Assembly: GCA_003552785.1 (NCBI GenBank)
Contig: PUOQ01000084.1
Coordinates: 1 to 51,616, forward strand
DNA: 51,616 nucleotides
Direction of reading: 5' to 3'
Source: Dehalococcoidia bacterium
GTDB taxonomy: Bacteria; Chloroflexota; Dehalococcoidia; Dehalococcoidales; CSSed11-197
In this document: one piece after another, positions 1 to 20,464 of the stretch
How the letters are laid out: every line of letters begins with the position of its first letter
Numbering within the stretch: position 1 is the stretch's first letter
Position numbers and translations under genes: made by a program
The notes under the pieces: generated by a model
The model's input: only the letters and a program-made list of their open reading frames with translations
The model's database searches: none
Told to the model about the DNA's origin: nothing

Positions 1-1554
<1,554 letters not shown>

Positions 1555-1738
1555 TGTTTCAGGCCTGGTATTAGCCTTTGGACAAAAAACTTATATTCTA
1601 TTGTTAATGTGCCGGGACATAATTAAACGCCCTGGCAACTTGCCACCAGGACGCTACCTGGCTTGAGTCACCGTATGTTATACTATGTCCCTGCTCCTGA
1701 CATTCTTCCTCTCTTCTCTCGTCTTGAGAGCAAAGTAG

Positions 1739-1767
1739 ATGATATCACACCCCAATGACCTTGTCAA
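1739..1767 (-). promoter_or_regulatory. Putative sigma70-type promoter for the 23S rRNA
   Basis: The minus strand reads TTGACA (1767-1762), a 17-nt spacer, then TATCAT (1744-1739). An A-rich tract (GCAAAAAT) sits just upstream of the -35, like an UP element. The site is about 180 nt upstream of the mature 23S 5' end. Confidence 0.5.
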
Positions 1768-1946
1768 ATTTTTGCCAAACCCGTATTGGGTGATACTTTA
1801 ATATAAAACTTGCAAAGCTAAAACAAAACCTGACAGTAGATAGAAATATTTGATTTTTACTCTTTATCAACTCAAATTTGAAACAGACAATCGATTCAAT
1901 TATGTTATAATTATCTTTAATTTAAAACAATTATAGGGGTGCTATA

Positions 1947-3152
1947 GTGTGGGAATGGTTAATGCAACACAGCATCTGGACCCTCGGGGCAGCAACCCTG
2001 GTACTGGCGTTGCTCCTGATATGCAGAGAGCAGCCTAAAAACCGCATAAGCCGGTGGTTTTTAAAAGATAAAAAACCTGAAACGAAAACGGGTCTGTCTG
2101 TCTTTTTCTGGATTTTGGCCGCAGCACTGCTGCTGGTTATTATGGCCTCAGCTATAGCTATTGTATTATCAGAGGAAGGCGTCCAGGCCAACATCACGCT
2201 TGATGATATACAAGCCTGGCTGTTATCCAGTGGTATTCCTGTTCTTTTAATAATAATTGTCTCTTTTGTGTTATATCGCCTGGTATCGCTTGCCATACCC
2301 AGGCTGGTAGAAAAATACCTGAAGTTACGTGCCAAAGGCCGTCATTCCAGGTTATGGTACCAGAACCGAACTCAGACTCTGGCTACCGTGCTGACTACTA
2401 CAGCCGGTGCTGTAATCGGCCTGATTGCTGTTTTTATGCTGCTTGGTGAATTTGGGGTAAACATCACTCCCCTTCTTGCCGGAGCCGGGGTTCTTGGTGT
2501 GGCCATAGGCTTTGGGGCCCAAAGCCTTATCAAGGACTTTATCAGCGGGCTTTTTATATTCCTGGAAGATCACTACAACAAGGGGGATGTGGTCGAAGTA
2601 GCAGGCCGTGTTGGAACAGTAGAGGAAATTAATTTGAGGCGTACAGTATTGCGAGACCTGGACGGGATAGTTCACTCCATCCCCAATGGAGAAATATCCA
2701 CTTCATCAAACTACACGCGCGACTGGGCCCGGGTCAAGCTGGACGTTCCGGTGGCCTACGGTGAAGACCTGGATAAAGTATTTGAAGTCTTAAACCGTGT
2801 TGGACAGGAACTGGCTGCAGACCAGGTCTTCGGACCCAAAATAAAAACTCCTCCACAGGTTTTAAGGGTTCAGAATTTTGGCGATTCAGGCATTGATATA
2901 CGGATACTGGGGGAAGTAAAGCCTATTGAGCAATGGACGGTTACCGGAGAACTTAGACGGCGTATAAAGAAGGCTTTCGACGAAGAGGGAATCGAGATCC
3001 CCTGGCCCCACGTCAAATTGTATTTGGGGCAGGATAAAAGCCATGATTCTTCGGTCCTGTGTACCAGTTGCTCTGTTCCTGCTTCTGAAAACAACCGGTA
3101 CTGTGGTAATTGCGGTAGTGAAATTAAAAAAACAGAGCAGGACAAATCTTAA
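1947..3152 (+). CDS. mscS: Mechanosensitive ion channel (MscS family) with a C-terminal zinc-ribbon
   Basis: 401-aa ORF with N-terminal TM helices and an MscS core (GVLGVAIGFGAQSLIKDFISGLFIFLEDHYNKGDVVEV...GTVEEINLRRTVLRDLDG..HSIPNG). The tail is CTSC-x12-CGNC. AGGGGTG lies 5 nt before the GTG start. Confidence 0.85.
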   Translation: MWEWLMQHSIWTLGAATLVLALLLICREQPKNRISRWFLKDKKPETKTGLSVFFWILAAALLLVIMASAIAIVLSEEGVQANITLDDIQAWLLSSGIPVLLIIIVSFVLYRLVSLAIPRLVEKYLKLRAKGRHSRLWYQNRTQTLATVLTTTAGAVIGLIAVFMLLGEFGVNITPLLAGAGVLGVAIGFGAQSLIKDFISGLFIFLEDHYNKGDVVEVAGRVGTVEEINLRRTVLRDLDGIVHSIPNGEISTSSNYTRDWARVKLDVPVAYGEDLDKVFEVLNRVGQELAADQVFGPKIKTPPQVLRVQNFGDSGIDIRILGEVKPIEQWTVTGELRRRIKKAFDEEGIEIPWPHVKLYLGQDKSHDSSVLCTSCSVPASENNRYCGNCGSEIKKTEQDKS

Positions 3153-3208
3153 GTAAACTGTTATTATTTCAACCACTATAAAGCCCTGGGAAAAGAAAGG
3201 AGTAACCC

Positions 3209-4135
3209 ATGCCATCGTTTGCTTTCCTGAAAGGACAATTTGTACCTCTTGAGGACGCCAAGATAGGAATTATGACTCATGCGCTGCATTATGGAACTGC
3301 GGTTTTTGAAGGAATCCGTGGCAACTGGAATGAGGAAGCAAGGGAAGTTTACCTTTTCCGCCTGGAAGAGCATTATCAGCGCCTTATAAGTGGCGCAAGG
3401 ATACTCAAGATGCAGCCTGATTACACAGTTTCCAGGTTATGTGAAATTACTCAGGAGCTGGGGCGAAAAAGCGGACTTAAGGAAGATATTTATATCCGGC
3501 CGCTGGCATACAAGAGTACTGAAGGGATGGGGGTGCGACTACACGAGCTTGAAGATGATTTACTGGTATTTGTTATCCCCTGGGGGGCTTACCTTGATAT
3601 GGAAAGTGCCCGGTGCTGCATTTCCACATGGAGGCGGCCGGCAGACAATACCATTCCGCCCGCAATAAAAATTGCTGGAACTTATGTCAACAACGCCTTT
3701 ACAAAAACTGAAGCCATTGAAAACGGGTTTGACGAAGGTATAATGCTTACTCCGGATGGATACGTAGCAGAGGGTAGCGGGGAAAACATATTTATCATAA
3801 AAAACGGTAAACTCATAACCCCGCCAATATATAATAGTATACTGGCAGGCATCACCCGGGACACCGTTATCACACTTGCTAAAGCAGAGCTTGGTGTCGA
3901 AACAGAAGAAAGGCCTATCACCAGAGTTGAACTTTACCAGGCGGATGAATGCTTTTTAACCGGCACAGCAGCACATGTTACACCTGTATCAGAAATCGAC
4001 AGTTACAGGCTTAAGAGTGATGGTGTAGGCCTGTTTACCGCACGCATCAGAAAACTTTATTTCGACATCATTCGCGGTAAACATCCTGGCTATATGAAAT
4101 GGTGCACTCCGGTGTATGGAAATAAAACAACATAA
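3209..4135 (+). CDS. ilvE: Branched-chain amino acid aminotransferase (class IV)
   Basis: 308 aa with the typical IlvE N-terminus and motifs (HALHYGTAVFEGIRG, YIRPL, EGSGENIF, GITRDTVI). AAAGGAG RBS is present. Confidence 0.9.
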   Translation: MPSFAFLKGQFVPLEDAKIGIMTHALHYGTAVFEGIRGNWNEEAREVYLFRLEEHYQRLISGARILKMQPDYTVSRLCEITQELGRKSGLKEDIYIRPLAYKSTEGMGVRLHELEDDLLVFVIPWGAYLDMESARCCISTWRRPADNTIPPAIKIAGTYVNNAFTKTEAIENGFDEGIMLTPDGYVAEGSGENIFIIKNGKLITPPIYNSILAGITRDTVITLAKAELGVETEERPITRVELYQADECFLTGTAAHVTPVSEIDSYRLKSDGVGLFTARIRKLYFDIIRGKHPGYMKWCTPVYGNKTT

Positions 4136-6769: not shown

Positions 6770-9214
6770 ATGCCATCCAATTATAACCCAGCTGAAATCG
6801 AGCCTAAATGGCAAAAAAAATGGGCTGACGACAGGCTTTACCACGTTTTTGAGGATTCAACAAAGCCTAAATGGTATGCTCTCACCATGTTTCCATACAC
6901 CTCCGGTGATCTTCATATAGGTCACTGGTATGCTATGGCTCCGTCCGATGTTCATGCCCGCTTCAAACGCATGCAAGGCTATAACGTACTTCATCCTATG
7001 GGCTTTGATGCATTTGGATTACCGGCAGAAAATGCAGCCTTAAAGCACGGAATCCATCCCCATGAGTGGACGATGAGAAACGTTGAGAATATGCGCCGGC
7101 AATTAAAAACCATAGGGGCTGTTTACGATTGGGACAGGGAAGTAATAACCTGCCTTCCAGATTATTACAAATGGACCCAGTGGTTTTTTGTGAAACTTTT
7201 CCAGGCCGGCCTGGCCTACCGCTCCCAGGCCCCGGTAAACTGGTGCTCCAATTGCAATGTAGTACTGGCCAACGAACAGGTAGTCAATGGAGGCTGCTGG
7301 CGATGTGACACCCCCGTGATCCGGCGCGACCTCAAGCAATGGTTCCTGAAAATTACCCATTACGCTGACGAGCTTATGGAGCATGAGGGGCTCGACTGGC
7401 CAGAAAAAATTAAAACCATGCAGAAAAACTGGGTAGGCAGAAGTGAAGGCGCTGAAATCCATTTTGGTATCGAAAGAAGCGATATTGATGAAAAAGGGGT
7501 TAAGGCATTTACTACACGCCCGGATACTGTTTTTGGCATCACCTACGTAGTAATGGCTCCTGAACATCCCCTGGTGGAAAAACTGACCACCAAAGAGAAG
7601 GCTGAAGAAGTAAAGGCTTATGTCGAACGCACTCGTAAACGTACCGAAATTGAACGTGTTTCCACCGAAAAAGAAAAGGATGGCGTCTTTATCGGAGCTT
7701 ATCTAACCAACCATGTTAATGGAGAAAAAGTGCCGGTATGGATTGCGGATTATGTACTGCTGAGTTATGGCACAGGCATGGTGATGGGAGTGCCGGCTCA
7801 TGACGACCGGGATTTTGCTTTCGCCCGTAAATACGGTATTCCTGTCAGAGTAGTTATCGCGCCACCCGACTGGGAAGGGGAAGACCTTGAGGAGGCTTTC
7901 ACTCAGGATGGTGTAATGGTTAATTCCGGACATTTCAATGGTTTGCCCAGCGAAAAGGGAAGAAAGGAAGTTACCCGATATCTTGAAAACAAGGGTTGGG
8001 GCCGTTTCGCGGTAAGTTATAAACTTCGTGACTGGCTAATCTCACGCCAGCGTTACTGGGGCGCACCTATTCCCATAATTCACTGTGATAATTGCGGAAC
8101 ACTGCCGGTGCCCGAGCATGAACTGCCTGTATTATTACCATCGGATGCAGAATTCAAAGCTACCGGTGAATCCCCCCTGAAATATAATGAGGAATTTATA
8201 AACACGACCTGTCACAAGTGCAAATCTCCGGCTAAACGCGAAACCGATACCATGGATACATTCATGTGCTCTTCCTGGTACTTTCTACGCTATACCAGTC
8301 CGGGCTTTGATGACGGACCTTTTGATCCTGACAGGATGAAGTACTGGATGCCGGTCGATCTATATACCGGTGGAGCGGAACATGCAGTAATGCATCTTTT
8401 TTATTCACGCTTTTTCACCAAGGCGCTAAGGGATATGGGCCTGGTCGATTTTGACGAGCCTTTTTTAAAGCTTTTTAACCAGGGCACCATCATAGTAGAC
8501 CGTCAAAAAATGAGTAAATCACGGGGCAATGTTATCAACCCTGATACATTACTATCATCAATGGGAGCAGACGTTGTACGTGCGTACTTGATGTTTGTAG
8601 CCCCATGGGAACAGGGAGGAGAATGGAATGATTCCGGTATTTCCGGCATAAACCGCTGGCTTAACCGGATATGGAATCTCATTAATAACCAGTATAAACC
8701 CGCCGAAAACCTGAATAATGATGCACTCAAGACTTTTGAAAGGCAACTTCACCAAACCATCAGCAAGGTCACCCATGACATAAACGACATACGCTTCAAT
8801 ACCATGCTTTCCACTTTAATGGAGTTCACCAATTACCTTGGCAGGGTCAAAGAATCCGGTTCAGTTCCTTTTCAAAACTGGCAGGAAGCAATTAAAAAAT
8901 TACTCTTAATGCTGGCCCCATCAGCACCTCATATGACCGAAGAACTCTGGCAGCAACTGGGCTATGAATACTCTGTCCACACTCAAAAGTGGCCGGAATG
9001 GGATGAAAATAAAGCTAAAGAAGAAGAAATAACCCTGGTTGTTCAGGTAAATGGGAAGTTAAGAGGTAAAATTAACCTTCCGGTGAACGTAAGCAAAGAT
9101 GAAGCACTGAAAAGTGCAATGGAAGCAGAGCGTATAAAACCTTTCATTGAAGGTAAAAAAGTGGTCGATATGATCTATGTTCCAGGCAGGGTAATTAATC
9201 TGGTGGTAAAATGA
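6770..9214 (+). CDS. leuS: Leucine--tRNA ligase
   Basis: 814 aa with a class I HIGH motif (DLHIGH), KMSKS (QKMSKSRGN), the CP1 editing domain and a Zn-binding CWRC. Confidence 0.97.
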   Translation: MPSNYNPAEIEPKWQKKWADDRLYHVFEDSTKPKWYALTMFPYTSGDLHIGHWYAMAPSDVHARFKRMQGYNVLHPMGFDAFGLPAENAALKHGIHPHEWTMRNVENMRRQLKTIGAVYDWDREVITCLPDYYKWTQWFFVKLFQAGLAYRSQAPVNWCSNCNVVLANEQVVNGGCWRCDTPVIRRDLKQWFLKITHYADELMEHEGLDWPEKIKTMQKNWVGRSEGAEIHFGIERSDIDEKGVKAFTTRPDTVFGITYVVMAPEHPLVEKLTTKEKAEEVKAYVERTRKRTEIERVSTEKEKDGVFIGAYLTNHVNGEKVPVWIADYVLLSYGTGMVMGVPAHDDRDFAFARKYGIPVRVVIAPPDWEGEDLEEAFTQDGVMVNSGHFNGLPSEKGRKEVTRYLENKGWGRFAVSYKLRDWLISRQRYWGAPIPIIHCDNCGTLPVPEHELPVLLPSDAEFKATGESPLKYNEEFINTTCHKCKSPAKRETDTMDTFMCSSWYFLRYTSPGFDDGPFDPDRMKYWMPVDLYTGGAEHAVMHLFYSRFFTKALRDMGLVDFDEPFLKLFNQGTIIVDRQKMSKSRGNVINPDTLLSSMGADVVRAYLMFVAPWEQGGEWNDSGISGINRWLNRIWNLINNQYKPAENLNNDALKTFERQLHQTISKVTHDINDIRFNTMLSTLMEFTNYLGRVKESGSVPFQNWQEAIKKLLLMLAPSAPHMTEELWQQLGYEYSVHTQKWPEWDENKAKEEEITLVVQVNGKLRGKINLPVNVSKDEALKSAMEAERIKPFIEGKKVVDMIYVPGRVINLVVK

Positions 9215-11982: not shown

Positions 11983-12048
11983 TTGACACACCAATCAATA
12001 ACGTGCTACATTACTAATCAATTATTTAATGTACATAAGTATGTACAT
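11983..12048 (+). promoter_or_regulatory. Putative promoter plus duplicated palindromic operator upstream of the yefM-like gene
   Basis: TTGACA (11983-11988), 18 nt, TACATT (12007-12012). Two copies of the self-complementary octamer ATGTACAT follow at 12029-12036 and 12041-12048, 12 bp centre to centre. Confidence 0.5.
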
Positions 12049-12063
12049 TTTTTGGTGCATATC

Positions 12064-12309
12064 ATGCTTGAAGCAATATCAGCAACCCAGGCCCGCCAGC
12101 AACTGCTCCCGATACTGGAGCAGGTAAACGCTGAAAGAAAGCGGTACATGGTAACCCGGCACGGTAAACCAGTAGCTGTAATCATGAGCTATGAAGATTT
12201 CTCCCGTATTGAAACTACCCTGAGGCTGTTTGATAATAAAGAGTTATCACGAAATTTTAATGAAGGCCTTAACGACGAAAGGGAAATGCGGCTAAACCCT
12301 TTTGAGTAA
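12064..12309 (+). CDS. yefM: Phd/YefM-family type II antitoxin
   Basis: 81 aa; MLEAISATQARQQLLPILEQVNAERKRYMVTRHGKPVAVIMSYEDFSRIETTLRL matches the Phd/YefM pattern. I chose the ATG at 12064 because the track start at 11983 coincides with the -35 box. Confidence 0.8.
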   Translation: MLEAISATQARQQLLPILEQVNAERKRYMVTRHGKPVAVIMSYEDFSRIETTLRLFDNKELSRNFNEGLNDEREMRLNPFE

Positions 12310-13102
12310 GCTGCCGGTAAGAATGAACCAGATACTTATTACTGACCAGGTAAAGAATCGACTAAATCAACTAAACGAGTTTGAAAAGACCCGATTCAGG
12401 CGCACCATTCGGCAACTGGCAATAAATGAATTGCAGGGAGTTAAGCTATGGGGCAGACGGGGTCTTTTCATCTACGAGTTTGCCACCGGAGACAGTATAA
12501 TCTACCGAAAACAAAACGGTGGCAGTGAAACGATTATTCTCGGCCTCTCTGTCAAATCTTCTTCTGCCGGGCAAAGAATAAAGGTCTCGGCGGTGGTTCT
12601 GGCTGCTGGGAAAACTGCCTCGCCTTTCGAGTTGCCGCTTCCTTACATGGTAGGCTCACTTTTAGACGGTGGTATTGACGACCTTATAGTTGTACTCGGT
12701 CAACAGTCGGAGCAATTCAAGCAAGAGCTTACTGATCAACCGGTAAAAATAGTCACCATCCCTGAAGGCGAACAGCAACTGAGCCGCTCAATTCGTAAAG
12801 GACTGAAAACAATAGCCCCGGACTGTGGAGCTGTCTTGCTGACCCTGGGAACCCGTCCTTTCATCAGGCCCGGCCTGATAAACATTTTGATCCGTAGTTA
12901 CAAACTGGAAAACACGCCCATCCTTGTGCCGACCTTTGAACACGAGCCCGGCCACCCGGTTGTTTTCTCACCCGGAATATTACCGGAGTTTATGCGGTTA
13001 AAAGGCAACACCGGAGGCAAGGCTGTACTAAAACACCACAGCCAGGATCTTCGCCACCTGGAAGTAGAAGACCGGGGCGTAATTGCATGCCTGGGTTCAT
13101 AA
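12302..13102 (+). CDS. Fusion protein: N-terminal RelE/ParE-fold toxin-like domain plus a degenerate MobA/MocA-like NTP-transferase domain
   Basis: 266 aa; it overlaps the antitoxin stop by 8 nt (TTG at 12302; an alternative ATG is at 12323). Residues 8-85 fit the RelE/ParE pattern. Residues 95-266 fit MocA-like (VSAVVLAAGK, IVVLG, PGHPVVF), but the LAAGxSxRMG and GDxP motifs are altered. Confidence 0.6.
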   Translation: MSKLPVRMNQILITDQVKNRLNQLNEFEKTRFRRTIRQLAINELQGVKLWGRRGLFIYEFATGDSIIYRKQNGGSETIILGLSVKSSSAGQRIKVSAVVLAAGKTASPFELPLPYMVGSLLDGGIDDLIVVLGQQSEQFKQELTDQPVKIVTIPEGEQQLSRSIRKGLKTIAPDCGAVLLTLGTRPFIRPGLINILIRSYKLENTPILVPTFEHEPGHPVVFSPGILPEFMRLKGNTGGKAVLKHHSQDLRHLEVEDRGVIACLGS

Positions 13103-13144: not shown

Positions 13145-14155
13145 ATGAGGATGATTTTCGTTTGCATCGTTGCTGCAATCACAAGCATAAGCATGTTGCT
13201 CGCAGGCTGCACCAATCCGAATAAACCTGTCGGCATGGCAGTTGAGTTCAATGCTCATGCAACTTCAGCATACACAGCTCTCGAAAAAGGCTGGTATGCA
13301 GAGGAGGGCCTTTCCTTCACTGCACACGAGAGCTATGTCACAGGAATGGCTCTGGCTTCCTCACTTGCACGCGGCGATATCGGAGTAGCATATATGTGCC
13401 TTGTGCCTGCTATTACTGCTTACGCCAATGCAGGGGTAGATTTGAAAATAATAGCCGGCACCCACAAAGATGGTTACGGGCTGGCTGTTAATCCGGATAA
13501 AATCAAAGCCGTCGATGACCTTCAAAATCCAGGAATACGTATAGCCAGTGTTCAACCCGGTGGCGCAGTAGATGTAGTACTTAACAAAACTATAGACTAT
13601 TTTGAACTGGATAAAAAAAAGGTTTTGGACAATACATTGCGCATGAACCCGGCCCGAGCCTTGATCTCAATACAATCAGGCCAGGTTGATGCTGTTTTTC
13701 TTCCTGAACAATGGTCCAGTATGGCCGAAGAGCATGGTTTTGAAATGCTCTTGGAAAGTAAAGACGTCTGGCCGGGGCTGCAGGGAGGGGTTCTGGTAGT
13801 GAAACAGGAACTTATTAACAGCTCGCCTGAAACAATTAAAGCACTGCTTAAAGTAGACTCAAAAACAGTTGACTGGATAAACTCAAACCCGGAAGAAGCC
13901 TCGCAAATTCTCTCAAGTGCCATGCAGGGAACAATAAAACAGGAAAAGCCGACTGATTCTGCATTCGAAACTGCAGCCGGGTTTGACTACTCACCAGAAG
14001 TGATGCTGAGAGCCATCAACCGTATTAATTTTTCACCTGCAATTGAGATCTCGGGCGTACAGGAGGTGATAGACTACCTGGAGGAACTGGACTATATTAG
14101 AAGCAGTTTCCCGGCAGAAGAAATAATGGATTTGAGCTTCCTTCTGGCGGATTAA
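13145..14155 (+). CDS. ABC transporter substrate-binding lipoprotein, NMT1/SsuA (NitT/TauT) type
   Basis: 336 aa with a signal peptide and lipobox (LLAGC). The overall pattern is NMT1/THI5-like (GVAYMCLVPAITAYANAGVDLKIIAG..DGYGLAV). Confidence 0.8.
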   Translation: MRMIFVCIVAAITSISMLLAGCTNPNKPVGMAVEFNAHATSAYTALEKGWYAEEGLSFTAHESYVTGMALASSLARGDIGVAYMCLVPAITAYANAGVDLKIIAGTHKDGYGLAVNPDKIKAVDDLQNPGIRIASVQPGGAVDVVLNKTIDYFELDKKKVLDNTLRMNPARALISIQSGQVDAVFLPEQWSSMAEEHGFEMLLESKDVWPGLQGGVLVVKQELINSSPETIKALLKVDSKTVDWINSNPEEASQILSSAMQGTIKQEKPTDSAFETAAGFDYSPEVMLRAINRINFSPAIEISGVQEVIDYLEELDYIRSSFPAEEIMDLSFLLAD

Positions 14156-14161
14156 CCGGAT

Positions 14162-14935
14162 ATGAAAGGCGTCAAAATCATTCTTAAAAAGTTGAACCCC
14201 GGCTGGGGAATTGTTCCCATTTTTATTTTTTTAATTATCTGGGAGCTGGCTGCCCGATTTAACCTCGTCCCCGGTCAGTTTTACTTTCCTCCTTTTTCAG
14301 AAGTTATGGCCGAGTTTTTTAACCTGGCATCAACCGGGGTCCTGGGTGATAACTTCCTTGCCAGCCTGTGGAGGGTCCTGGCCGGTCTTACCGCCGGTTC
14401 ACTTGCCGGTGTGATGCTCGGGGTAATAATGGGATGGAAGGAAATAGCACATAAGTCATTAAACCCGATAGTCAGCCTGTTTTTGCCCATCCCGCCACTG
14501 GGCTGGTTGCCCCTGCTGCTGCTGTGGATAGGTATCAATGAATGGCTTCCCATTACCATAATATTTATTTCATCTTTCTTCCCGGTGCTTTATAATACTA
14601 TCGCCGGCATAAAAAGTGTCGACAAAGATTATGTAAAGGTATCGCGCACCCTGGGTGCATCTGACATCAAAATCCTTACCACGGTGGTCATGCCACTGGC
14701 ATTACCCATGATTTTTACCGGTCTAAGATTAAACGCAGGCCATGCTTGGCGGGTGGTAATCGCGGCTGAAATGGTCGCCATACCCACAGGCATAGGGGCG
14801 CTTATGCTTCGTGCTGAAAGCCTGATCCGGATTGATATCATTATAGTATGCCTCATCGTACTGGCCGTTATGACATTTATATTTGACAAGTTGTTCGGCT
14901 ACATGGAGAACAAAGTGACCGCCAAGTGGAGTTAA
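14162..14935 (+). CDS. ABC transporter permease (NitT/TauT family)
   Basis: 257 aa with 6 TM segments and an EAA loop VSRTLGASDIKILTTVVMPLALPMIFTGLRL. Confidence 0.85.
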   Translation: MKGVKIILKKLNPGWGIVPIFIFLIIWELAARFNLVPGQFYFPPFSEVMAEFFNLASTGVLGDNFLASLWRVLAGLTAGSLAGVMLGVIMGWKEIAHKSLNPIVSLFLPIPPLGWLPLLLLWIGINEWLPITIIFISSFFPVLYNTIAGIKSVDKDYVKVSRTLGASDIKILTTVVMPLALPMIFTGLRLNAGHAWRVVIAAEMVAIPTGIGALMLRAESLIRIDIIIVCLIVLAVMTFIFDKLFGYMENKVTAKWS

Positions 14936-14936
14936 C

Positions 14937-16022
14937 ATGCCGAATATTGAATTAAAAAACATAAGCAGATATATATGTAAAAACATTAACCTCAAAATCA
15001 ACGAGGGTGAACTCATGGTGGTTCTGGGTCCATCCGGTTCTGGAAAAACGACTTTACTCAATGTTATTGCCGGACTTACAGACTATGAAGGTTCAGTAAG
15101 TTTCGACAACAAACCGGTTGACGGCATTGATGCCAGCCACCGTCGTATAGGATACCTTTTTCAGCAACTGGTACTGTTCCCCCATATGGATGTTAAAAAA
15201 AATATTGCCTACAGCCTGGAATTAAACAAGCTTCCCCGCAGCGATATAGAAAACCGGGTTGACGAACTGTTGCGCCTTGCAAAAATAAAACACCTTGGCA
15301 ACCGCTACCCAAAGTATTTAAGCGGAGGCGAAAAACAAAGAGTGGCCCTGGCCAGGGCCCTGGCCCCATCACCCAAAGTGCTGCTGCTGGATGAACCTTT
15401 AAGCAGCCTCGACCTGCAGACTGCCAAATACCTCAGAATGGAACTGAGGCAATTTCAGAAAAACCTGGGTATAACCATGGTATACGTAACTCATGACCTT
15501 TCCGAGGCAGAAGAAATTGCCGACCGAATAGCGGTCATGAACCATGGCAATATCGAACAGGTAGCAACACCTGACGAAGTGTTTTTCTTCCCTGAAAACC
15601 AGGTTGTTTCCAATTTTATAGGAGCTCCGAATATACTGGACTGCTGCTCATGTCGAAAATTGGAACAGGGTGTAGTTGAAGCCGACTGCAACGGCTTGCC
15701 GGTAATTGTTGCACATGAAGGCAACTCGGTGAATCGTATCGCTTTCCTTCCAAGGGATATTTTCCTGTCAGAAACCCGGCCACCGGGCCCTGGAGTTAAC
15801 CGTTTTGAAGGTAATGTAAGCGACATACGCTATACAGACGACTCGGTACGCGTTACAGTAGATGTACGCAGCCATCAGCTGGTAGCTGAAGTTCCCTACC
15901 ATCTTTTTGAAGATATGGCGCTGGCACCGGGTAAACATGTATATTTGATTTTAAAACTGAGGCGAATCCGTGTTTACGATTGCAACTGTAATGACAGAAT
16001 GCACGACACAGGGCTAAAATAA
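14937..16022 (+). CDS. ABC transporter ATP-binding protein with a C-terminal TOBE-type regulatory domain (ModC/CysA-like architecture)
   Basis: 361 aa with Walker A GPSGSGKTT, signature LSGGEKQR and Walker B LLLDEP. A tail of about 120 aa follows, NFIGAPN...NRFEGNVSDIRYTDDSVRVTVDV...GKHVYLILKLRRIRVY. Confidence 0.88.
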   Translation: MPNIELKNISRYICKNINLKINEGELMVVLGPSGSGKTTLLNVIAGLTDYEGSVSFDNKPVDGIDASHRRIGYLFQQLVLFPHMDVKKNIAYSLELNKLPRSDIENRVDELLRLAKIKHLGNRYPKYLSGGEKQRVALARALAPSPKVLLLDEPLSSLDLQTAKYLRMELRQFQKNLGITMVYVTHDLSEAEEIADRIAVMNHGNIEQVATPDEVFFFPENQVVSNFIGAPNILDCCSCRKLEQGVVEADCNGLPVIVAHEGNSVNRIAFLPRDIFLSETRPPGPGVNRFEGNVSDIRYTDDSVRVTVDVRSHQLVAEVPYHLFEDMALAPGKHVYLILKLRRIRVYDCNCNDRMHDTGLK

Positions 16023-16087: not shown

Positions 16088-16891
16088 ATGTCATTAGCAA
16101 GCTTAAAAATCCTGGTAAGAGGGGCCGGAGAACAGGCAACAGCAATCGCCCACCGCCTGCATCAATGTCATTTCAGGGTAGTCCTCACTGAAACGTCCCG
16201 ACCTGAAGCGGTCAGGAGGGAGGTAGCATTCAGCGAAGCGGTACATGACAAGGAAAAAACCGTTGAAGGTGTTACAGCACGGCTTGTAAATTCTCCTGAC
16301 GATGTATTCGGGACCTGGCAAAATGTTGAAATCCCACTGTTAATTGATCCTGAGGCAAAGGTAAAAACGGTTTTAAAACCTGACGTTATTATTGATGCAA
16401 CCATCGCCAAAAAAAACCTGGGCAATAAAATGGATGACGCCCGGCTGGTAATCGGTCTCGGAGTGGGGTTTCATGCCGGCAGAGATGTGGATGTTGTAAT
16501 CGAGACCAATCGCGGCCATAACCTTGGCCGGGTTATCCGGCACGGAGAAGCTGAAGCTGATACCCGCATACCCGGCAGCATAATGGGCTACACCGAAGAA
16601 CGCGTGCTGAGAGCACCGCAGGATGGGGTTTTAAATACCCATTACGCCATCGGTGATATCGTAAAGTCCGGTGATGTGGTAGCCGAAATAAGTGGAGCCC
16701 CGATCAAAACAGTTATCGGTGGAGTAGTGCGGGGGCTACTTAGAAATGGTACCACCGTACACAAGGGCATGAAATGCGGTGATGTCGATCCTCGCGGTAT
16801 CAAGGAATACTGTTTCACCATTTCCGATAAAGGCAGAGCTCTGGGCGGAGGTGTACTGGAAGCTATCCTTGCTGAATTTAATACACATTAA
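16088..16891 (+). CDS. yqeB: YqeB / EF2563-family selenium-dependent molybdenum hydroxylase system protein
   Basis: 267 aa; ILVRGAGEQATAIAHRLHQCHFRVVLTE..PEAVRREVAFSEAVHD matches my memory of the EF2563/YqeB family N-terminus. This is recognition only, with no search run. Confidence 0.7.
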   Translation: MSLASLKILVRGAGEQATAIAHRLHQCHFRVVLTETSRPEAVRREVAFSEAVHDKEKTVEGVTARLVNSPDDVFGTWQNVEIPLLIDPEAKVKTVLKPDVIIDATIAKKNLGNKMDDARLVIGLGVGFHAGRDVDVVIETNRGHNLGRVIRHGEAEADTRIPGSIMGYTEERVLRAPQDGVLNTHYAIGDIVKSGDVVAEISGAPIKTVIGGVVRGLLRNGTTVHKGMKCGDVDPRGIKEYCFTISDKGRALGGGVLEAILAEFNTH

Positions 16892-16908: not shown

Positions 16909-17508
16909 ATGCAAATAAGGGATCTAAAAAGAGTTAACGCTTTATGGCGAGATATTTACCCCTTCCTGGCAGCTCAGGCCATGGAACTCTATGGCAAAAG
17001 GGAAGGAGACGTTCTTGAACTCGGCCCGTTCTCAGGGGGAATAGCAATCGAACTGGCCAGCAACTATCCGGGAGTTAATATAACTATCGCCGATGAGCGT
17101 AATGAAATGCTCGAGTCTTTTAAGAGCCAAGTCTCGGAATGTCGATTGGAAAAACGCATAAAAGTAACACAGACGAACCTGGATAAATTAAATTTTGAAA
17201 ACGAGACTTTCAACCTGGTTATCTTCCGGGGAGCTTTTTTCTTTTTACCAGGCACAAAAACACTGCTTCCCGAAATATACCGGGTCTTAAAGCCCGGTGG
17301 TCTTGCATTTGTTGGCGGGGGCTACGGAAAAGATGCCACCAAAGAGGCGATCGAAGCTATAGCAGATGAATCCCGCATTTTAAATGACCGGCTTGGACGG
17401 CGGCGCTTGAGCATTGAGGAGTTGCAGCACCTGGTAGACGAGGCGGGCATGACGCCTGCCACCCGGATTTGTGAAGAAGGCGGGGTATGGCTGGTAATAA
17501 ACAAGTAG
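16909..17508 (+). CDS. Class I SAM-dependent methyltransferase
   Basis: 199 aa with motif I VLELGPFSGGIAIELA and post-I/II elements (ITIADE, LVIFRGAFFF, LKPGGLAFVGGGYG). Confidence 0.75.
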   Translation: MQIRDLKRVNALWRDIYPFLAAQAMELYGKREGDVLELGPFSGGIAIELASNYPGVNITIADERNEMLESFKSQVSECRLEKRIKVTQTNLDKLNFENETFNLVIFRGAFFFLPGTKTLLPEIYRVLKPGGLAFVGGGYGKDATKEAIEAIADESRILNDRLGRRRLSIEELQHLVDEAGMTPATRICEEGGVWLVINK

Positions 17509-18284
17509 CCGGCCTTAAAGGCATCAGCCTGACAACGGCGCTTGAACTATCCAGCCGGGAAATAATAAGCCTGGTCGGAGGTGGAGGCAAGAGCACTCTT
17601 ATGAATGCTCTTGCAAAAGAACTCGAGGGCGCCGGCAATACAGTGATTACTACTACTACTACCAGGATTTTACCTGCCCAGGCTACCGGATACCTCATTT
17701 GCGAAAATAACGAAGACCTCCTGTTTGAAAAAGCCAGACAAAATTTATCTAAAAAACACCACCTGACTCTGGCTGGAGGCCGTGACGGAGAGTACAAATT
17801 AACCAGTATCGGAGTTGACTGCGTCGAAAAAATTGCCTCGATTGCCAGCTATATCGTTATAGAAGCTGATGGAGCCGGCTGCAAGCCGATTAAAGCCCCG
17901 GGCCGAGCTGAACCGGTAATTCCCCGCGCCACAACCATTGTTATCGCCGTTGTTGGCATCGACTGCCTGGGTAAAAAAGTATCAGAAATAGTTTTCAGGC
18001 CGGAGATTGCCTGTGAACTTATTCAAATAAAACCTGATGACACGGTTTCAACAGGCATGGTTGCCAGCTTGATTCTGCACCCTCAAGGTATAACCAAAGG
18101 AAGCCCGCCTGAGGCCCGCAAGGTTGTTTTTATTAACAAAGTAAACAGCGATCTTGAGCTCGCCAGAGCTGTTGAGATTGCAAAAGTTATAAATAAGCAC
18201 TCTAAATTCAGCCATGTTATAATAGGACAGGCTCGGGAAAAACAACCCGTAATAAAAGTATTAAAATCAGGAAAACACAGGTAA
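17487..18284 (+). CDS. yqeC: YqeC-family selenium cofactor biosynthesis accessory protein
   Basis: 265 aa with a P-loop-like ISLVGGGGKSTLMNALA and VITTTTTRI, as in the YqeC family. It overlaps the methyltransferase by 22 nt. Confidence 0.7.
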   Translation: MAGNKQVAGLKGISLTTALELSSREIISLVGGGGKSTLMNALAKELEGAGNTVITTTTTRILPAQATGYLICENNEDLLFEKARQNLSKKHHLTLAGGRDGEYKLTSIGVDCVEKIASIASYIVIEADGAGCKPIKAPGRAEPVIPRATTIVIAVVGIDCLGKKVSEIVFRPEIACELIQIKPDDTVSTGMVASLILHPQGITKGSPPEARKVVFINKVNSDLELARAVEIAKVINKHSKFSHVIIGQAREKQPVIKVLKSGKHR

Positions 18285-18297
18285 ACAGGGGAGAGAA

Positions 18298-19071
18298 ATG
18301 GAACTTGATATTTATGAAGAAGTATCCAGATTAAAAGCTGAGGGTAAAGAAGCCGCGCTCGTAACCCTGATAGCATCCAGCGGCTCGACTCCACGTGGAG
18401 AAGGGGCCAAAATGATGGTTTTAGCCGACGGCACTATCAAGGGAACCATTGGCGGGGGAAGCGTTGAGAGGGAAATAGTTGAAGTCGCCAAAGAAGTGTT
18501 GCGCAAAGGTAAACCGCAACGTTTTAAGTATGAACTGAAAAAACCCGATGAAGGGGTCGGCATGATATGCGGTGGAGACATGGAGGTATTCATAGAGCCG
18601 GTTCTGCAAACACCAATGGTATTTATTTTCGGCGCTGGCCATATAGCCCATTCACTATCAAAAATGGCTGGACTTGCCGGCTTCAAAGTCACCGTTGTTG
18701 ACGACCGCCCTGGATTTGCGACTCCAGAACGATTTCCAGAGGCGGAAAGGACCCTGACCAGCGATTTTGCACAATCGTTTAAGGAACTGAAAATCGGCAA
18801 GGGCAGCTTTATCGTTATCGTTACCTACGGGCATAAAAATGACCAGGTTGTACTGGAAAAAGCTTTGAAAACGCCTGCTTTTTACATTGGCATGATAGGT
18901 TCAAGAACCAAAAACCAGGCTGTATACGACAACCTCAAGCAAAAAGGGGTTACCGATGAAGAGATCAATCGGGTACACGCCCCGATAGGTTTAAACATAA
19001 AGGCCCACACGCCCGCCGAGATTGCAGTCAGCATACTCGGGGAAATGATTCAGGTTAAAAGGTCTGGATAG
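18298..19071 (+). CDS. xdhC: XdhC/CoxI-family molybdoenzyme maturation factor
   Basis: 257 aa with an XdhC N-domain (AALVTLIASSGSTPRGEGAKMMVLADGTIKGTIGGGSVE) and a Rossmann C-domain (VFIFGAGHIAHSL..VTVVDDRP). Confidence 0.85.
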   Translation: MELDIYEEVSRLKAEGKEAALVTLIASSGSTPRGEGAKMMVLADGTIKGTIGGGSVEREIVEVAKEVLRKGKPQRFKYELKKPDEGVGMICGGDMEVFIEPVLQTPMVFIFGAGHIAHSLSKMAGLAGFKVTVVDDRPGFATPERFPEAERTLTSDFAQSFKELKIGKGSFIVIVTYGHKNDQVVLEKALKTPAFYIGMIGSRTKNQAVYDNLKQKGVTDEEINRVHAPIGLNIKAHTPAEIAVSILGEMIQVKRSG

Positions 19072-19186
19072 ATTTAAATCAGCCCGGCCTTTTAATATTT
19101 CTGTATAAGAAGTATTCTTGATTCTTTTCAACCCGGACTTACAACTATTAATATTGAAAAACACCTTGTCTTGCAGGAGGAAACAA

Positions 19187-20464
19187 ATGGCTTATGACTG
19201 GCATAAACCCTACCAGGAGCTAAAAAAGTATATTGAAAATAACCCCAAGATAGCAATCGAGAAAAATGCTGTATTTATACCTCAGGATGTCAGGGGTGAT
19301 TTTTATTCTCACTTTGACAAAGTGAGAGATACATTTCTTAAACAGCATTTCAGCCATGAAGTCACCATGGCTGAAGAACTGAAGGGGGAATTTATCAAGC
19401 TGGAAAAGCAGGTCACCTCCAGTTTAAACATTGCTGGAGAGGTGAAAATGGCACCGCCCTTGAGGCGTTTTCTCAACGACCCGGTCGACGGGCTAATGCG
19501 GCCATTGTTCAATCCTCTTTTTGACCTGCTGAAGGATAAAATTGATGAAGGTACATTCGAGGAAAATTGCCTGGCCGATATAAGGGCTTTTTTAAAAAAG
19601 CACCTCCGAACAGGTTACGAAAGATGGGCTGTGCTTTGCCTGCTTAAATGGCTGGAACCAACAAAAATGCTGACACTGCCCTTAAAAGATTTTGACCTGT
19701 ATTCATCATCAGGCGAAGGAGACAGCCAGTACGAACGTGTTGAAGTTCTTCCGGGTACCAGCGCCTTAAAAGAACTGCTGTTTGATTATTCAACCCACGT
19801 ATCTTTTGCTGTGCCCGACATTATCGTCTACTCTTCAAAGCTTAACAAATATACAGCTGTAAAAACAGGTTTTATCGAACCGAGGTGGAAGGCAAGATTT
19901 GTAAGTGAATACCGCGAGTGGTTGCCATTAAACCAGTTGACTCAGGTGTTTACACCGAACAACCCCTGGCCCAGCATACTTGTCTACATCGACGACCATG
20001 TTGAAAACATTAAGCTTACTGCCGACCGTTACCAGTTTTGCCAGCCAGACATGATTGTAAATACTCTGCCTGAAGACGACTGGTTTAACCCGGAGGAAAC
20101 AAAACGATTAAAAGCACATACAGAATTAATAAAACCGCTAATGGGAAATCTGATTGTATGCCGTGGTAATGTACCTGAAGAAGCTTCCAGGCTCCTTGCC
20201 GGGGAAAATACAACCGAAGAAAATGCATCTGAGCCGGGTAATCTTGAAGACGAGGGCCAAACAGGCCTGGACCAGGCTCAACCTGAAACAGGGGTTTATC
20301 ATGCAGGAAATGCAAGTCTGGATTCAACCCAAAAGGAACCAGCCGATAAAACTAAGACTGCAAAGGGCATGATGAAAATTATAAGTGCTGGTTATGATTA
20401 TTCCATATTTACCTCGGCCATTGAAAAACTTGTGCTGCCTGAAGATAATTCTCAGCCACAATAA
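19187..20464 (+). CDS. Hypothetical protein (425 aa), no family recognised
   Basis: A long ORF on the operon strand, with AGGAGG (19175-19180) 6 nt before the ATG at 19187. It has a helical N-terminal part, a beta-rich core and an acidic low-complexity region near the C-terminus. Confidence 0.6.
   Translation: MAYDWHKPYQELKKYIENNPKIAIEKNAVFIPQDVRGDFYSHFDKVRDTFLKQHFSHEVTMAEELKGEFIKLEKQVTSSLNIAGEVKMAPPLRRFLNDPVDGLMRPLFNPLFDLLKDKIDEGTFEENCLADIRAFLKKHLRTGYERWAVLCLLKWLEPTKMLTLPLKDFDLYSSSGEGDSQYERVEVLPGTSALKELLFDYSTHVSFAVPDIIVYSSKLNKYTAVKTGFIEPRWKARFVSEYREWLPLNQLTQVFTPNNPWPSILVYIDDHVENIKLTADRYQFCQPDMIVNTLPEDDWFNPEETKRLKAHTELIKPLMGNLIVCRGNVPEEASRLLAGENTTEENASEPGNLEDEGQTGLDQAQPETGVYHAGNASLDSTQKEPADKTKTAKGMMKIISAGYDYSIFTSAIEKLVLPEDNSQPQ

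Follow-up and report, generated by a model that had tools for sequence, protein, structure and literature searches.

Analysis of a 51,616 nt stretch of DNA from a Dehalococcoidia bacterium (GCA_003552785.1, contig PUOQ01000084.1, positions 1 to 51,616, forward strand), which in its whole length we call the window, revealed a Phd/YefM-type antitoxin gene (phd) followed by a gene that encodes a RelE-like toxin fold fused to a degenerate MocA-like domain. The two genes occupy neighbouring open reading frames (ORFs) on the + strand, 12064-12309 and 12302-13102. Our preferred reading, to which we give a little better than an even chance, is that the pair is a vertically inherited, domesticated toxin-antitoxin (TA) module of the YefM-YoeB/RelE type that would act as a two-protein transcriptional switch for an operon of molybdenum/tungsten (Mo/W) uptake and cofactor maturation. 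An earlier note on this DNA had offered such a switch as one of two options. Synteny, selection, the operator, the linkage to Mo/W genes and the lost catalytic motifs all favoured it, while its DNA binding, ligand sensing and lack of toxicity are properties that we infer.

A consensus scan placed the best promoter-like site of the region ahead of phd. It consists of a -35 hexamer TTGACA (11983-11988, + strand) and, after an 18 nt spacer, a -10 hexamer TACATT (12007-12012) that is preceded by TGc and so has the form of an extended -10; together they matched the consensus at 10 of 12 positions. All orthologous upstream regions had TTGAC(A/C/T) in the corresponding position, with an A/T-rich -10-like hexamer 17-18 nt past it. 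Downstream of the -10 lie two copies of the palindromic octamer ATGTACAT, at 12029-12036 and 12041-12048, and both promoter and octamers were located as the earlier note had described them. A 6-bp spacer divides the TGTACA cores of the octamers (12030-12035 and 12042-12047), whose centres are 12 bp apart, and 16 bp lie between the end of the second core and the phd start codon at 12064.

The arrangement TGTACA-N6-TGTACA occurred once in the 51.6-kb window, against an expectation of 0.05. Among 16 distinct loci with upstream sequence, all of which kept the first half-site, the pair was perfect in 13 and had one mismatch in another (L003), so that 14 of the 16 retained it. It was the single such site of each locus, always upstream of phd (31-40 nt before its start) and downstream of the conserved -35, and the loci that carry it encode fusion proteins just 33-57% identical. 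As the cores were constant across loci while spacer and flanks varied, we regard this phylogenetic footprint as strong comparative evidence of function. The published YefM-YoeB operator has the same geometry, with a 6-bp spacer and a 12-bp period (PMC1802561, PMC7730913). In the E. coli yefM-yoeB operator, made up of L and S repeats, YefM binds paired TGTACA cores 12 bp apart centre to centre and YoeB enhances the repression (PMC1802561); the axe-txe operator, likewise defined by experiment, also has paired TGTACA cores (PMC1802561, PMC7730913), and a paired TGTACA motif lies within 80 bp (<=80 bp) of yefM in diverse genomes (PMC1802561). In the window the paired cores, with the same spacer and period, are likewise <80 bp from the antitoxin start. 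The suggestion that the octamers form an antitoxin operator was therefore strengthened, and it is very probable that Phd represses the promoter through them. Further copies of the operator, as would mark a wider regulon, were sought across the window and the related loci and none was found. A separate 16-bp palindrome (CATGCGAAATCGCATG at 7669-7684 of locus L001, with an equivalent in L007) was observed in that clade, inside the -35/-10 spacer of the phd promoter; it was absent from the window and from the other clades.

The first ORF (12064-12309, 81 amino acids (aa)) was confirmed as a canonical Phd/YefM antitoxin gene, as had been claimed, with 60.1 bits to PF02604 (cut-off 29.8, E 1.8e-16) and 51.7 bits to TIGR01552 (cut-off 20.8, E 4e-14). 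Its product has an N-terminal DNA-binding and dimerisation domain and a variable C-terminal tail, and the nearest solved structures were M. tuberculosis RelB1 Rv1247c (9g12_C, 3.8e-7) and YefM/RelJ Rv3357 (3cto/3oei, 5e-7). At all loci examined phd lay directly upstream of the fusion gene; a search for Phd homologues, in which a word prefilter returned few proteins, gave one more example of this arrangement. The two genes had been described as overlapping by 8 nt. Both ORFs do exist, but the overlap requires the fusion gene to start at TTG 12302. The closest orthologues offer only one start, an ATG 10-14 nt past the phd stop and equivalent to ATG 12323, and for this reason ATG 12323 was taken as the likelier start; TTG 12302 and its overlap with phd appear doubtful by the same comparison. 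The fusion gene overlaps phd by 4-14 nt in more distant clades.

Counted from ATG 12323, residues 1-76 of the fusion protein (12323-12550) form an N-terminal domain (N-domain) which the earlier note had read as following the RelE/ParE pattern. An AlphaFold2 (AF2) model built from a 27-sequence alignment had a mean predicted local distance difference test score (pLDDT) of 84.8, with 83-92 in the N-domain, and showed the topology b1(3-6)-a1(8-16)-a2(19-33)-b2(48-52)-b3(58-64)-b4(69-76) followed by a low-confidence linker. A Foldseek search with an earlier, shallower model matched E. coli RelE (4fxe_E, E 7e-4, template modelling (TM) score 0.77 on the target, root-mean-square deviation (rmsd) 2.7 over 83 columns), as well as M. 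tuberculosis RelE1 (9g12_A/B) and RelE2, HigB2, and T. thermophilus RelE. With the better, 27-sequence model the matches listed (PDB and a viral library) were all to nucleotidyltransferase or GT-A folds, so this search gave the RelE fold no second confirmation. A profile of ten N-domains was additionally searched against 1.84 billion representative proteins (E <= 1e-3) and returned 18, comprising further fusions, fusion fragments, two probably spurious matches to repetitive proteins and four proteins of 73-84 residues that stand alone. Two of the latter were Pfam-positive toxins, P0024 (ParE_toxin, E 7e-13) and P0026 (YoeB_toxin, E 5e-9), which the profile reached at E 6e-4 to 9e-4, and hhalign aligned the profile to the YoeB-like P0026 with a probability of 96.6 over 67 columns at 33% identity. 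The N-domains of ten members had no match in Pfam, NCBIfam or PHROGs at E <= 1, and a PDB profile search and an hhalign comparison with E. coli YoeB found nothing. On the strength of the Foldseek toxin matches, the reach of the profile to ParE and YoeB toxins and the alignment to P0026, the N-domain is predicted to belong to the RelE/ParE/YoeB fold superfamily, too diverged for curated models, which upholds the earlier assignment.

The catalytic residues of these mRNA interferases we take to be K52, K54, R61, R81 and Y87 in RelE and E46, R65, H83 and Y84 in YoeB. In the hhalign register RelE K52 fell in a gap and K54 stood opposite a conserved Tyr51, invariant in the ten closest sequences; the segment with R81 and Y87 was replaced by the linker of the fusion protein (RelE-alignment register), and the C-terminal His-Tyr of P0026 had no counterpart. 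The stretch noted earlier as absent is indeed absent, and judged by these alignments the N-domain is a toxin fold without the mRNase active site. The position equivalent to RelE R61 is R/K in most members; it is Ser in the window and Arg in two of three other assemblies of the same DNA, the third of which stops short. The single-nucleotide polymorphism (SNP) concerned, 12496 T>G, changes Ser58 to Arg. The linker that follows (residues 77-86, VKSSSAGQRI, 12551-12580) had low pLDDT at 80-82 and unconserved columns; it is Ser-rich in this sequence, as reported, but not across the family, where the linker is variable.

The remainder of the fusion gene (12581-13102, including the stop codon) encodes a MocA/MobA-like C-terminal domain (C-domain) of the NTP_transf_3 type, with 63.6 bits to PF12804 (cut-off 27, E 3e-17), though only from profile position 31, and 83.9-85.6 bits to the MocA/YgfJ model TIGR03310, which is below the equivalog cut-off of 186.45. 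Foldseek matched it to Rv0371c (E 9e-14, TM 0.75, rmsd 2.5) and to the Sulfolobus MobA-like protein 3d5n (TM 0.85). Its motifs were compared with those of the canonical MocA-like proteins P0041 and P0042 and of an intact MocA at the related locus L034. The LAAGxSxRMG loop was reduced to LAAG(K/R) (LAAGKTAS in the window, with LAAGK at 12599-12613), RMG being absent in all 27 members, and 10-11 residues were deleted after it. The deletion is a derived feature, for it is not shared by the divergent members P0021 and P0023. GDxP was replaced by G(N/T)RP, which is GTRP in the window (12848-12859) with Asn nearly invariant across the 27 aligned members (14/15 inspected), and GDxGAR by GNxGGR, with Asn for Asp in essentially all members (GNTGGK in the window, 13004-13021). 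The C-terminal DxDTPxD was absent from the fusion family. The degenerate motifs listed in the earlier note (LAAGKTASPF, GTRP and the missing DxDTPxD) were therefore borne out family-wide; its deletion of roughly 9 residues is one of 10-11.

In contrast to these losses, LAAG, NP, LSxSxRxGL, GHPV.F and GN.GG(R/K) were invariant or nearly so. A search gap separated the fused clade (E <= 1e-35) from ordinary MocA (E about 1e-6), and the C-domain clade was seen only as a fusion. At L034 an intact MocA of 199 aa (LAAGESKRMGKPK; LAAGESKRMGKPKLLLP, SDQP, GDIGGR; TIGR03310 175 bits) is encoded about 6 kb downstream of the fusion gene, which speaks against the fused domain as the cytidylyltransferase of the cell. 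This intact gene and one for a 340-aa MoCF_biosynth-domain protein (10900-12544 of L034) lie just beyond a convergent tetrapyrrole methylase gene. A second MocA was not found within the 51-kb window. The motif degeneracy looks stable and family-wide, as is typical of a pseudoenzyme that keeps its binding fold, and the C-domain is in all likelihood catalytically inactive. The databases label the fusion proteins just 'nucleotidyltransferase family protein' or 'molybdenum cofactor cytidylyltransferase', a functional label that is probably wrong.

Whole-protein and C-domain searches of NCBI, JGI, ENA and Logan data recovered about 27 protein clusters (254-270 residues) that share the two-domain architecture, at 33-57% identity to the query. 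In a scan of one genome per species with a 10-sequence alignment, the full-length fusion was present in 11 species-level genomes, all of them Dehalococcoidia/Chloroflexota metagenome-assembled genomes and including the closed chromosome CP070729.1; in other phyla the match was to the MocA part alone. In three more independent assemblies the same DNA was found again; 1-3 SNPs set them apart from the window, and none has an indel where the domains join. This recurrence, with at least 27 clusters, excluded an assembly artefact or frameshift as the origin of the fusion, an origin that the earlier note had proposed to check from read pile-ups. Apart from 12496 T>G, the SNPs among these assemblies were 12321 G>A, between the TTG and ATG start candidates, and 12332 A>G (Ile4Val). 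A comparison of fused and split genes in related genomes, likewise proposed, showed a recurrent fusion that always directly follows phd; split loci, in which the N-domain and the degenerate MocA would each have a gene of their own, were sought and none was found, the short matches P0012-P0016 and P0018 being fusion fragments cut by contig ends. The ratio of non-synonymous to synonymous substitution (dN/dS, Nei-Gojobori, unsaturated orthologue pairs) was 0.07-0.38 for phd, 0.13-0.40 for the N-domain and 0.06-0.24 for the C-domain, and all three are under purifying selection. The second option of the earlier note, a toxin neutralised by fusion onto a decaying mocA, was thereby refuted: a C-domain with this dN/dS, and with motif residues invariant among proteins 33-57% identical, is not a decaying pseudogene.

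The genes that follow the pair are of the Mo/W-uptake and cofactor-maturation type. In the window they all run in its direction and are closely spaced, and a terminator-like site was not found between them on the + strand. An ATP-binding cassette (ABC) transporter comes first, with a lipoprotein substrate-binding protein (SBP) of the NMT1/SsuA type (13145-14155), a permease (14162-14935) and an ATPase with a TOBE domain (14937-16022), identified from Pfam and NCBIfam; the best match of the ATPase was tungstate WtpC, at 300 bits, which is below the cut-off. The maturation genes come next and encode YqeB (16088-16891; TIGR03309, 354 bits, cut-off 220), an S-adenosylmethionine (SAM) methyltransferase (16909-17508), YqeC (17487-18284; TIGR03172, 194 bits, cut-off 73) and an XdhC-family protein (18298-19071; XdhC_rel_AOR, 313 bits), PF19842, PF13478 and PF02625 being the Pfam models matched in this set. 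The last gene of the putative operon is a conserved 448-aa ORF of unassigned function (19118-20464). In other genomes the genes for YqeB, YqeC and YgfJ/MocA cluster together and are accessory to selenium-dependent molybdenum hydroxylases (PMC2276186). Neither selD nor a molybdenum hydroxylase was seen among the scanned ORFs of the window.

The region from leuS to the tetrapyrrole methylase gene was syntenic in relatives, and the maturation genes were syntenic in L001 and L004-L011. Other clades, e.g. L013, L014, L017 and L034, have ModA-type molybdate components in the SBP/permease slot (TIGR01256 above cut-off); YqeB may give way to a DUF4213/DUF364 protein and is lacking from L034, L014 and L038, and a MoCF_biosynth-domain gene may be inserted. 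At L038, the most divergent informative locus (fusion protein 34% identical), the upstream neighbours were unrelated and the unit of operator, phd, fusion gene, ModA-type SBP gene and permease gene was intact. Molybdate/tungstate-type ABC transporter genes thus always follow the pair, and YqeB/YqeC/XdhC genes usually do. Since the L038 unit is intact and the SBP is swapped in other clades, the constant association is that of the Phd-fusion pair with a Mo/W-type transporter.

Under our preferred reading, Phd/YefM dimers would bind the TGTACA palindromes (12030-12047), just downstream of the -10, and so repress the promoter at 11983-12012, which would serve phd, the fusion gene and probably the eight genes downstream. 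The RelE-fold domain would no longer cut mRNA and would still grip the C-terminal tail of Phd, taking the co-repressor part that YoeB plays towards YefM; we judge it likely that the N-domain binds Phd. The MocA-like domain, having lost the apparatus for nucleoside triphosphate (NTP) and Mg2+ and kept the rest of the fold and its pocket, would bind a cofactor-related ligand, for which Mo/W-molybdopterin, its dinucleotide form or a nucleotide are candidates. Ligand binding could then alter how the fusion protein strengthens or releases Phd on the operator, so that metal uptake and the maturation of the cofactor would be under feedback. We propose tentatively, at somewhat less than even chances, that a cofactor-related signal passes through the C-domain. 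The same degree of belief, a little short of even, attaches to the wider proposal that a toxin fold was turned into a signal adaptor, in which the RelE-like domain links a dead-enzyme sensor of the Mo/W cofactor to a YefM DNA-binding partner and the whole serves as a ligand-responsive regulator across Dehalococcoidia.

Several observations weigh against this switch. We infer both the protein-DNA and the protein-protein binding on which it depends, and the operator would also be accounted for if it served only to autoregulate phd and the fusion gene and left the genes downstream outside its reach. Further promoter-like sites occur among these genes, e.g. at 15991-16020 before yqeB. The second operator core is degenerate (TGCTCA) in two lineages, L010 and L011. 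The C-domain might bind nothing, part of its nucleotide pocket being deleted, and the ligand is a conjecture. The N-domain also keeps basic residues (R/K at the RelE R61 equivalent, R62 and K63), and for this reason it may retain RNA or ribosome binding, or a ParE-like non-enzymatic toxicity.

The last of these points leads to the reading in which the pair is still a working type II TA module, for addiction, stress or phage defence, whose toxic effect would be due either to the RelE/ParE-fold domain or to an activity newly acquired by the NTP-transferase-like domain. The canonical layout, in which Phd precedes a RelE-fold gene that overlaps it or is closely spaced, and the canonical autoregulatory operator are what such a module would show; some basic residues are conserved, and the N-domain and the Phd tail evolve faster than neighbouring genes. 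We nevertheless consider it distinctly improbable, as equivalents of RelE K52, K54, R81 and Y87 and of the C-terminal His-Tyr of YoeB are missing, and so are the Asp residues and NTP loop of a nucleotidyltransferase. Vertical, syntenic inheritance over a class-level clade in housekeeping surroundings with no mobile-element signature is also unlike typical mobile TA loci, and the constant linkage to Mo/W transporter genes speaks against it as well. The C-domain could instead still transfer cytidylyl or guanylyl groups to Mo-molybdopterin by way of an unusual active site, in which case the module would couple the synthesis or activity of this enzyme to Phd. The loss of the RMG loop, the Asn/Thr for Asp in GDxP and the Asn for Asp in GDxGAR in essentially all members, a score far under the TIGR03310 cut-off and the intact paralogue in L034 make this very unlikely, in spite of the overall MobA/MocA fold (Foldseek Rv0371c, E 9e-14), the K/R that follows LAAG in most members, the retained GHPV.F and the lack of a second MocA in the 51-kb window.

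A non-catalytic role need not involve sensing. The fusion protein could be a carrier or scaffold for Mo/W-pterin that works with YqeB, YqeC and XdhC, in which case Phd would only autoregulate, perhaps also holding the protein inactive after translation by its RelE-fold handle, and no ligand signal would reach the promoter. The C-domain does occupy the slot where YgfJ/MocA accompanies YqeB and YqeC (PMC2276186), its non-catalytic motifs are kept under strong purifying selection, and an intact MocA elsewhere could supply the chemistry. A carrier leaves unexplained, however, why the RelE-fold domain, Phd and a canonical operator are found in every lineage, including those without YqeB (L034, L014 and L038), and the invariant partner of the pair is the transporter, not the maturation genes. 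We judge this role unlikely, and keep to the domesticated transcriptional switch as our preferred reading.

Among known systems, the locus resembles YefM-YoeB and Axe-Txe in that a Phd/YefM-family gene comes first and a gene with a RelE-superfamily fold immediately second (adjacent at all loci), with two TGTACA palindromes 12 bp apart centre to centre near the start codon. Unlike in those systems, the second protein is outside the YoeB, RelE and ParE Pfam models, is without the catalytic residues and carries a MocA-like domain of 170 residues; the operator follows the -10 and does not cover it; and the locus, chromosomally fixed and syntenic across Dehalococcoidia, opens an operon of about 8.4 kb devoted to transport and cofactor maturation, where those systems are cassettes of two genes. 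Although antitoxin, operator, gene order and fold agree with YefM-YoeB, the locus was not classed as a YefM-YoeB TA module because the second protein matched no toxin sequence model and has no mRNA interferase catalytic residues. M. tuberculosis RelBE1 (Rv1247c/Rv1246c) and RelJK (Rv3357/Rv3358) gave the best solved-structure matches for Phd, and RelE1 was among the best fold matches of the N-domain, but their toxins stand alone with intact active sites and have no extra domain and no link to metal-cofactor genes.

With MocA/YgfJ, MobA and Rv0371c (PDB 2we9/2yes) the C-domain shares its fold (TM 0.73-0.85) and the motifs LAAG, NP, GxSxSxxxGL and GHPV.F, and with YgfJ it shares a neighbourhood of YqeB, YqeC and XdhC. 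It differs from MocA in having no RMG loop, no Asp in GDxP or GDxGAR and no DxDTPxD, and in always following an N-terminal RelE-fold domain; it was not classed as MocA because it is below the equivalog cut-off and lacks all three catalytic motifs. ModE, a one-protein repressor with a winged helix and Mop domains, and the molybdenum cofactor (Moco) riboswitch, which is RNA, are functional analogues only, in that they couple genes of molybdate uptake or Moco synthesis to the supply of molybdate or cofactor, the role proposed here. There is no sequence or structural relation to either, and in the present system DNA binding and putative sensing would reside on two proteins joined through a TA interface. 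A Moco riboswitch was sought in the window as well and none was found, which agrees with the proposed switch.

In the literature searched, neither a link between Phd/YefM and MocA nor a Phd/YefM-associated fusion of a RelE fold with MocA was described, in agreement with the earlier note, whose author knew of no described RelE/ParE-MocA fusion. What would be new is a type II TA architecture exapted, together with a fused pseudoenzyme, to head a metabolic operon. Whether chromosomal TA modules have ordinary cellular jobs is a long-running argument, and clear domestication into dedicated metabolic regulation is scarce. The locus offers a clean test case, as it combines a canonical YefM operator with a toxin fold that has no active-site residues and a fused pseudoenzyme that might act as sensor, and heads, at a fixed position, a Mo/W operon throughout a bacterial class. 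If the proposal is right, the pair would be a regulator of Mo/W homeostasis in Dehalococcoidia, of a build for which we found no published description; the adaptor, which would reuse the logic of conditional co-repression, would take the place of ModE or the Moco riboswitch without being homologous to either. The MobA/MocA family would gain an example of a pseudoenzyme sensor, and the arrangement would suggest a design for ligand-controlled switches of the TA type.

The transporter of the window is of mixed composition, with an NMT1/SsuA-type SBP and a TauC/SsuC-like permease, yet a WtpC/ModC-like ATPase with a TOBE domain; sister clades have a ModA SBP and a ModB-like permease, the ATPase being orthologous. 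The binding and membrane components seem to have undergone non-orthologous displacement, and molybdate, tungstate or another oxyanion are candidate substrates. The SAM methyltransferase gene separates yqeB from yqeC and overlaps the latter by 22 nt at its 3' end; YqeB and YqeC are each a marker for the cofactor system of labile-selenium molybdenum hydroxylases. The ORF at 19118-20464 had no match in Pfam or NCBIfam, and L001 and L004-L011 have counterparts of it, 33-51% identical, in the corresponding place. A 341-aa MoCF_biosynth-domain protein homologous to that of L034 is encoded directly after the fusion gene in L015 and L016.

At L038, genes for TIR-domain and ThsB-like proteins (1338-3866, - strand) lie a few kb upstream of phd, the fusion gene and modA, and were taken as an unrelated defence island. 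The rest of the window held no mobile-element genes, its content being housekeeping, and ARAGORN found no tRNA genes anywhere in it. The first 1554 nt (1-1554, - strand) contain the 5' half of a bacterial 23S rRNA gene, corresponding to model positions 1-1518, which runs off the start of the window.

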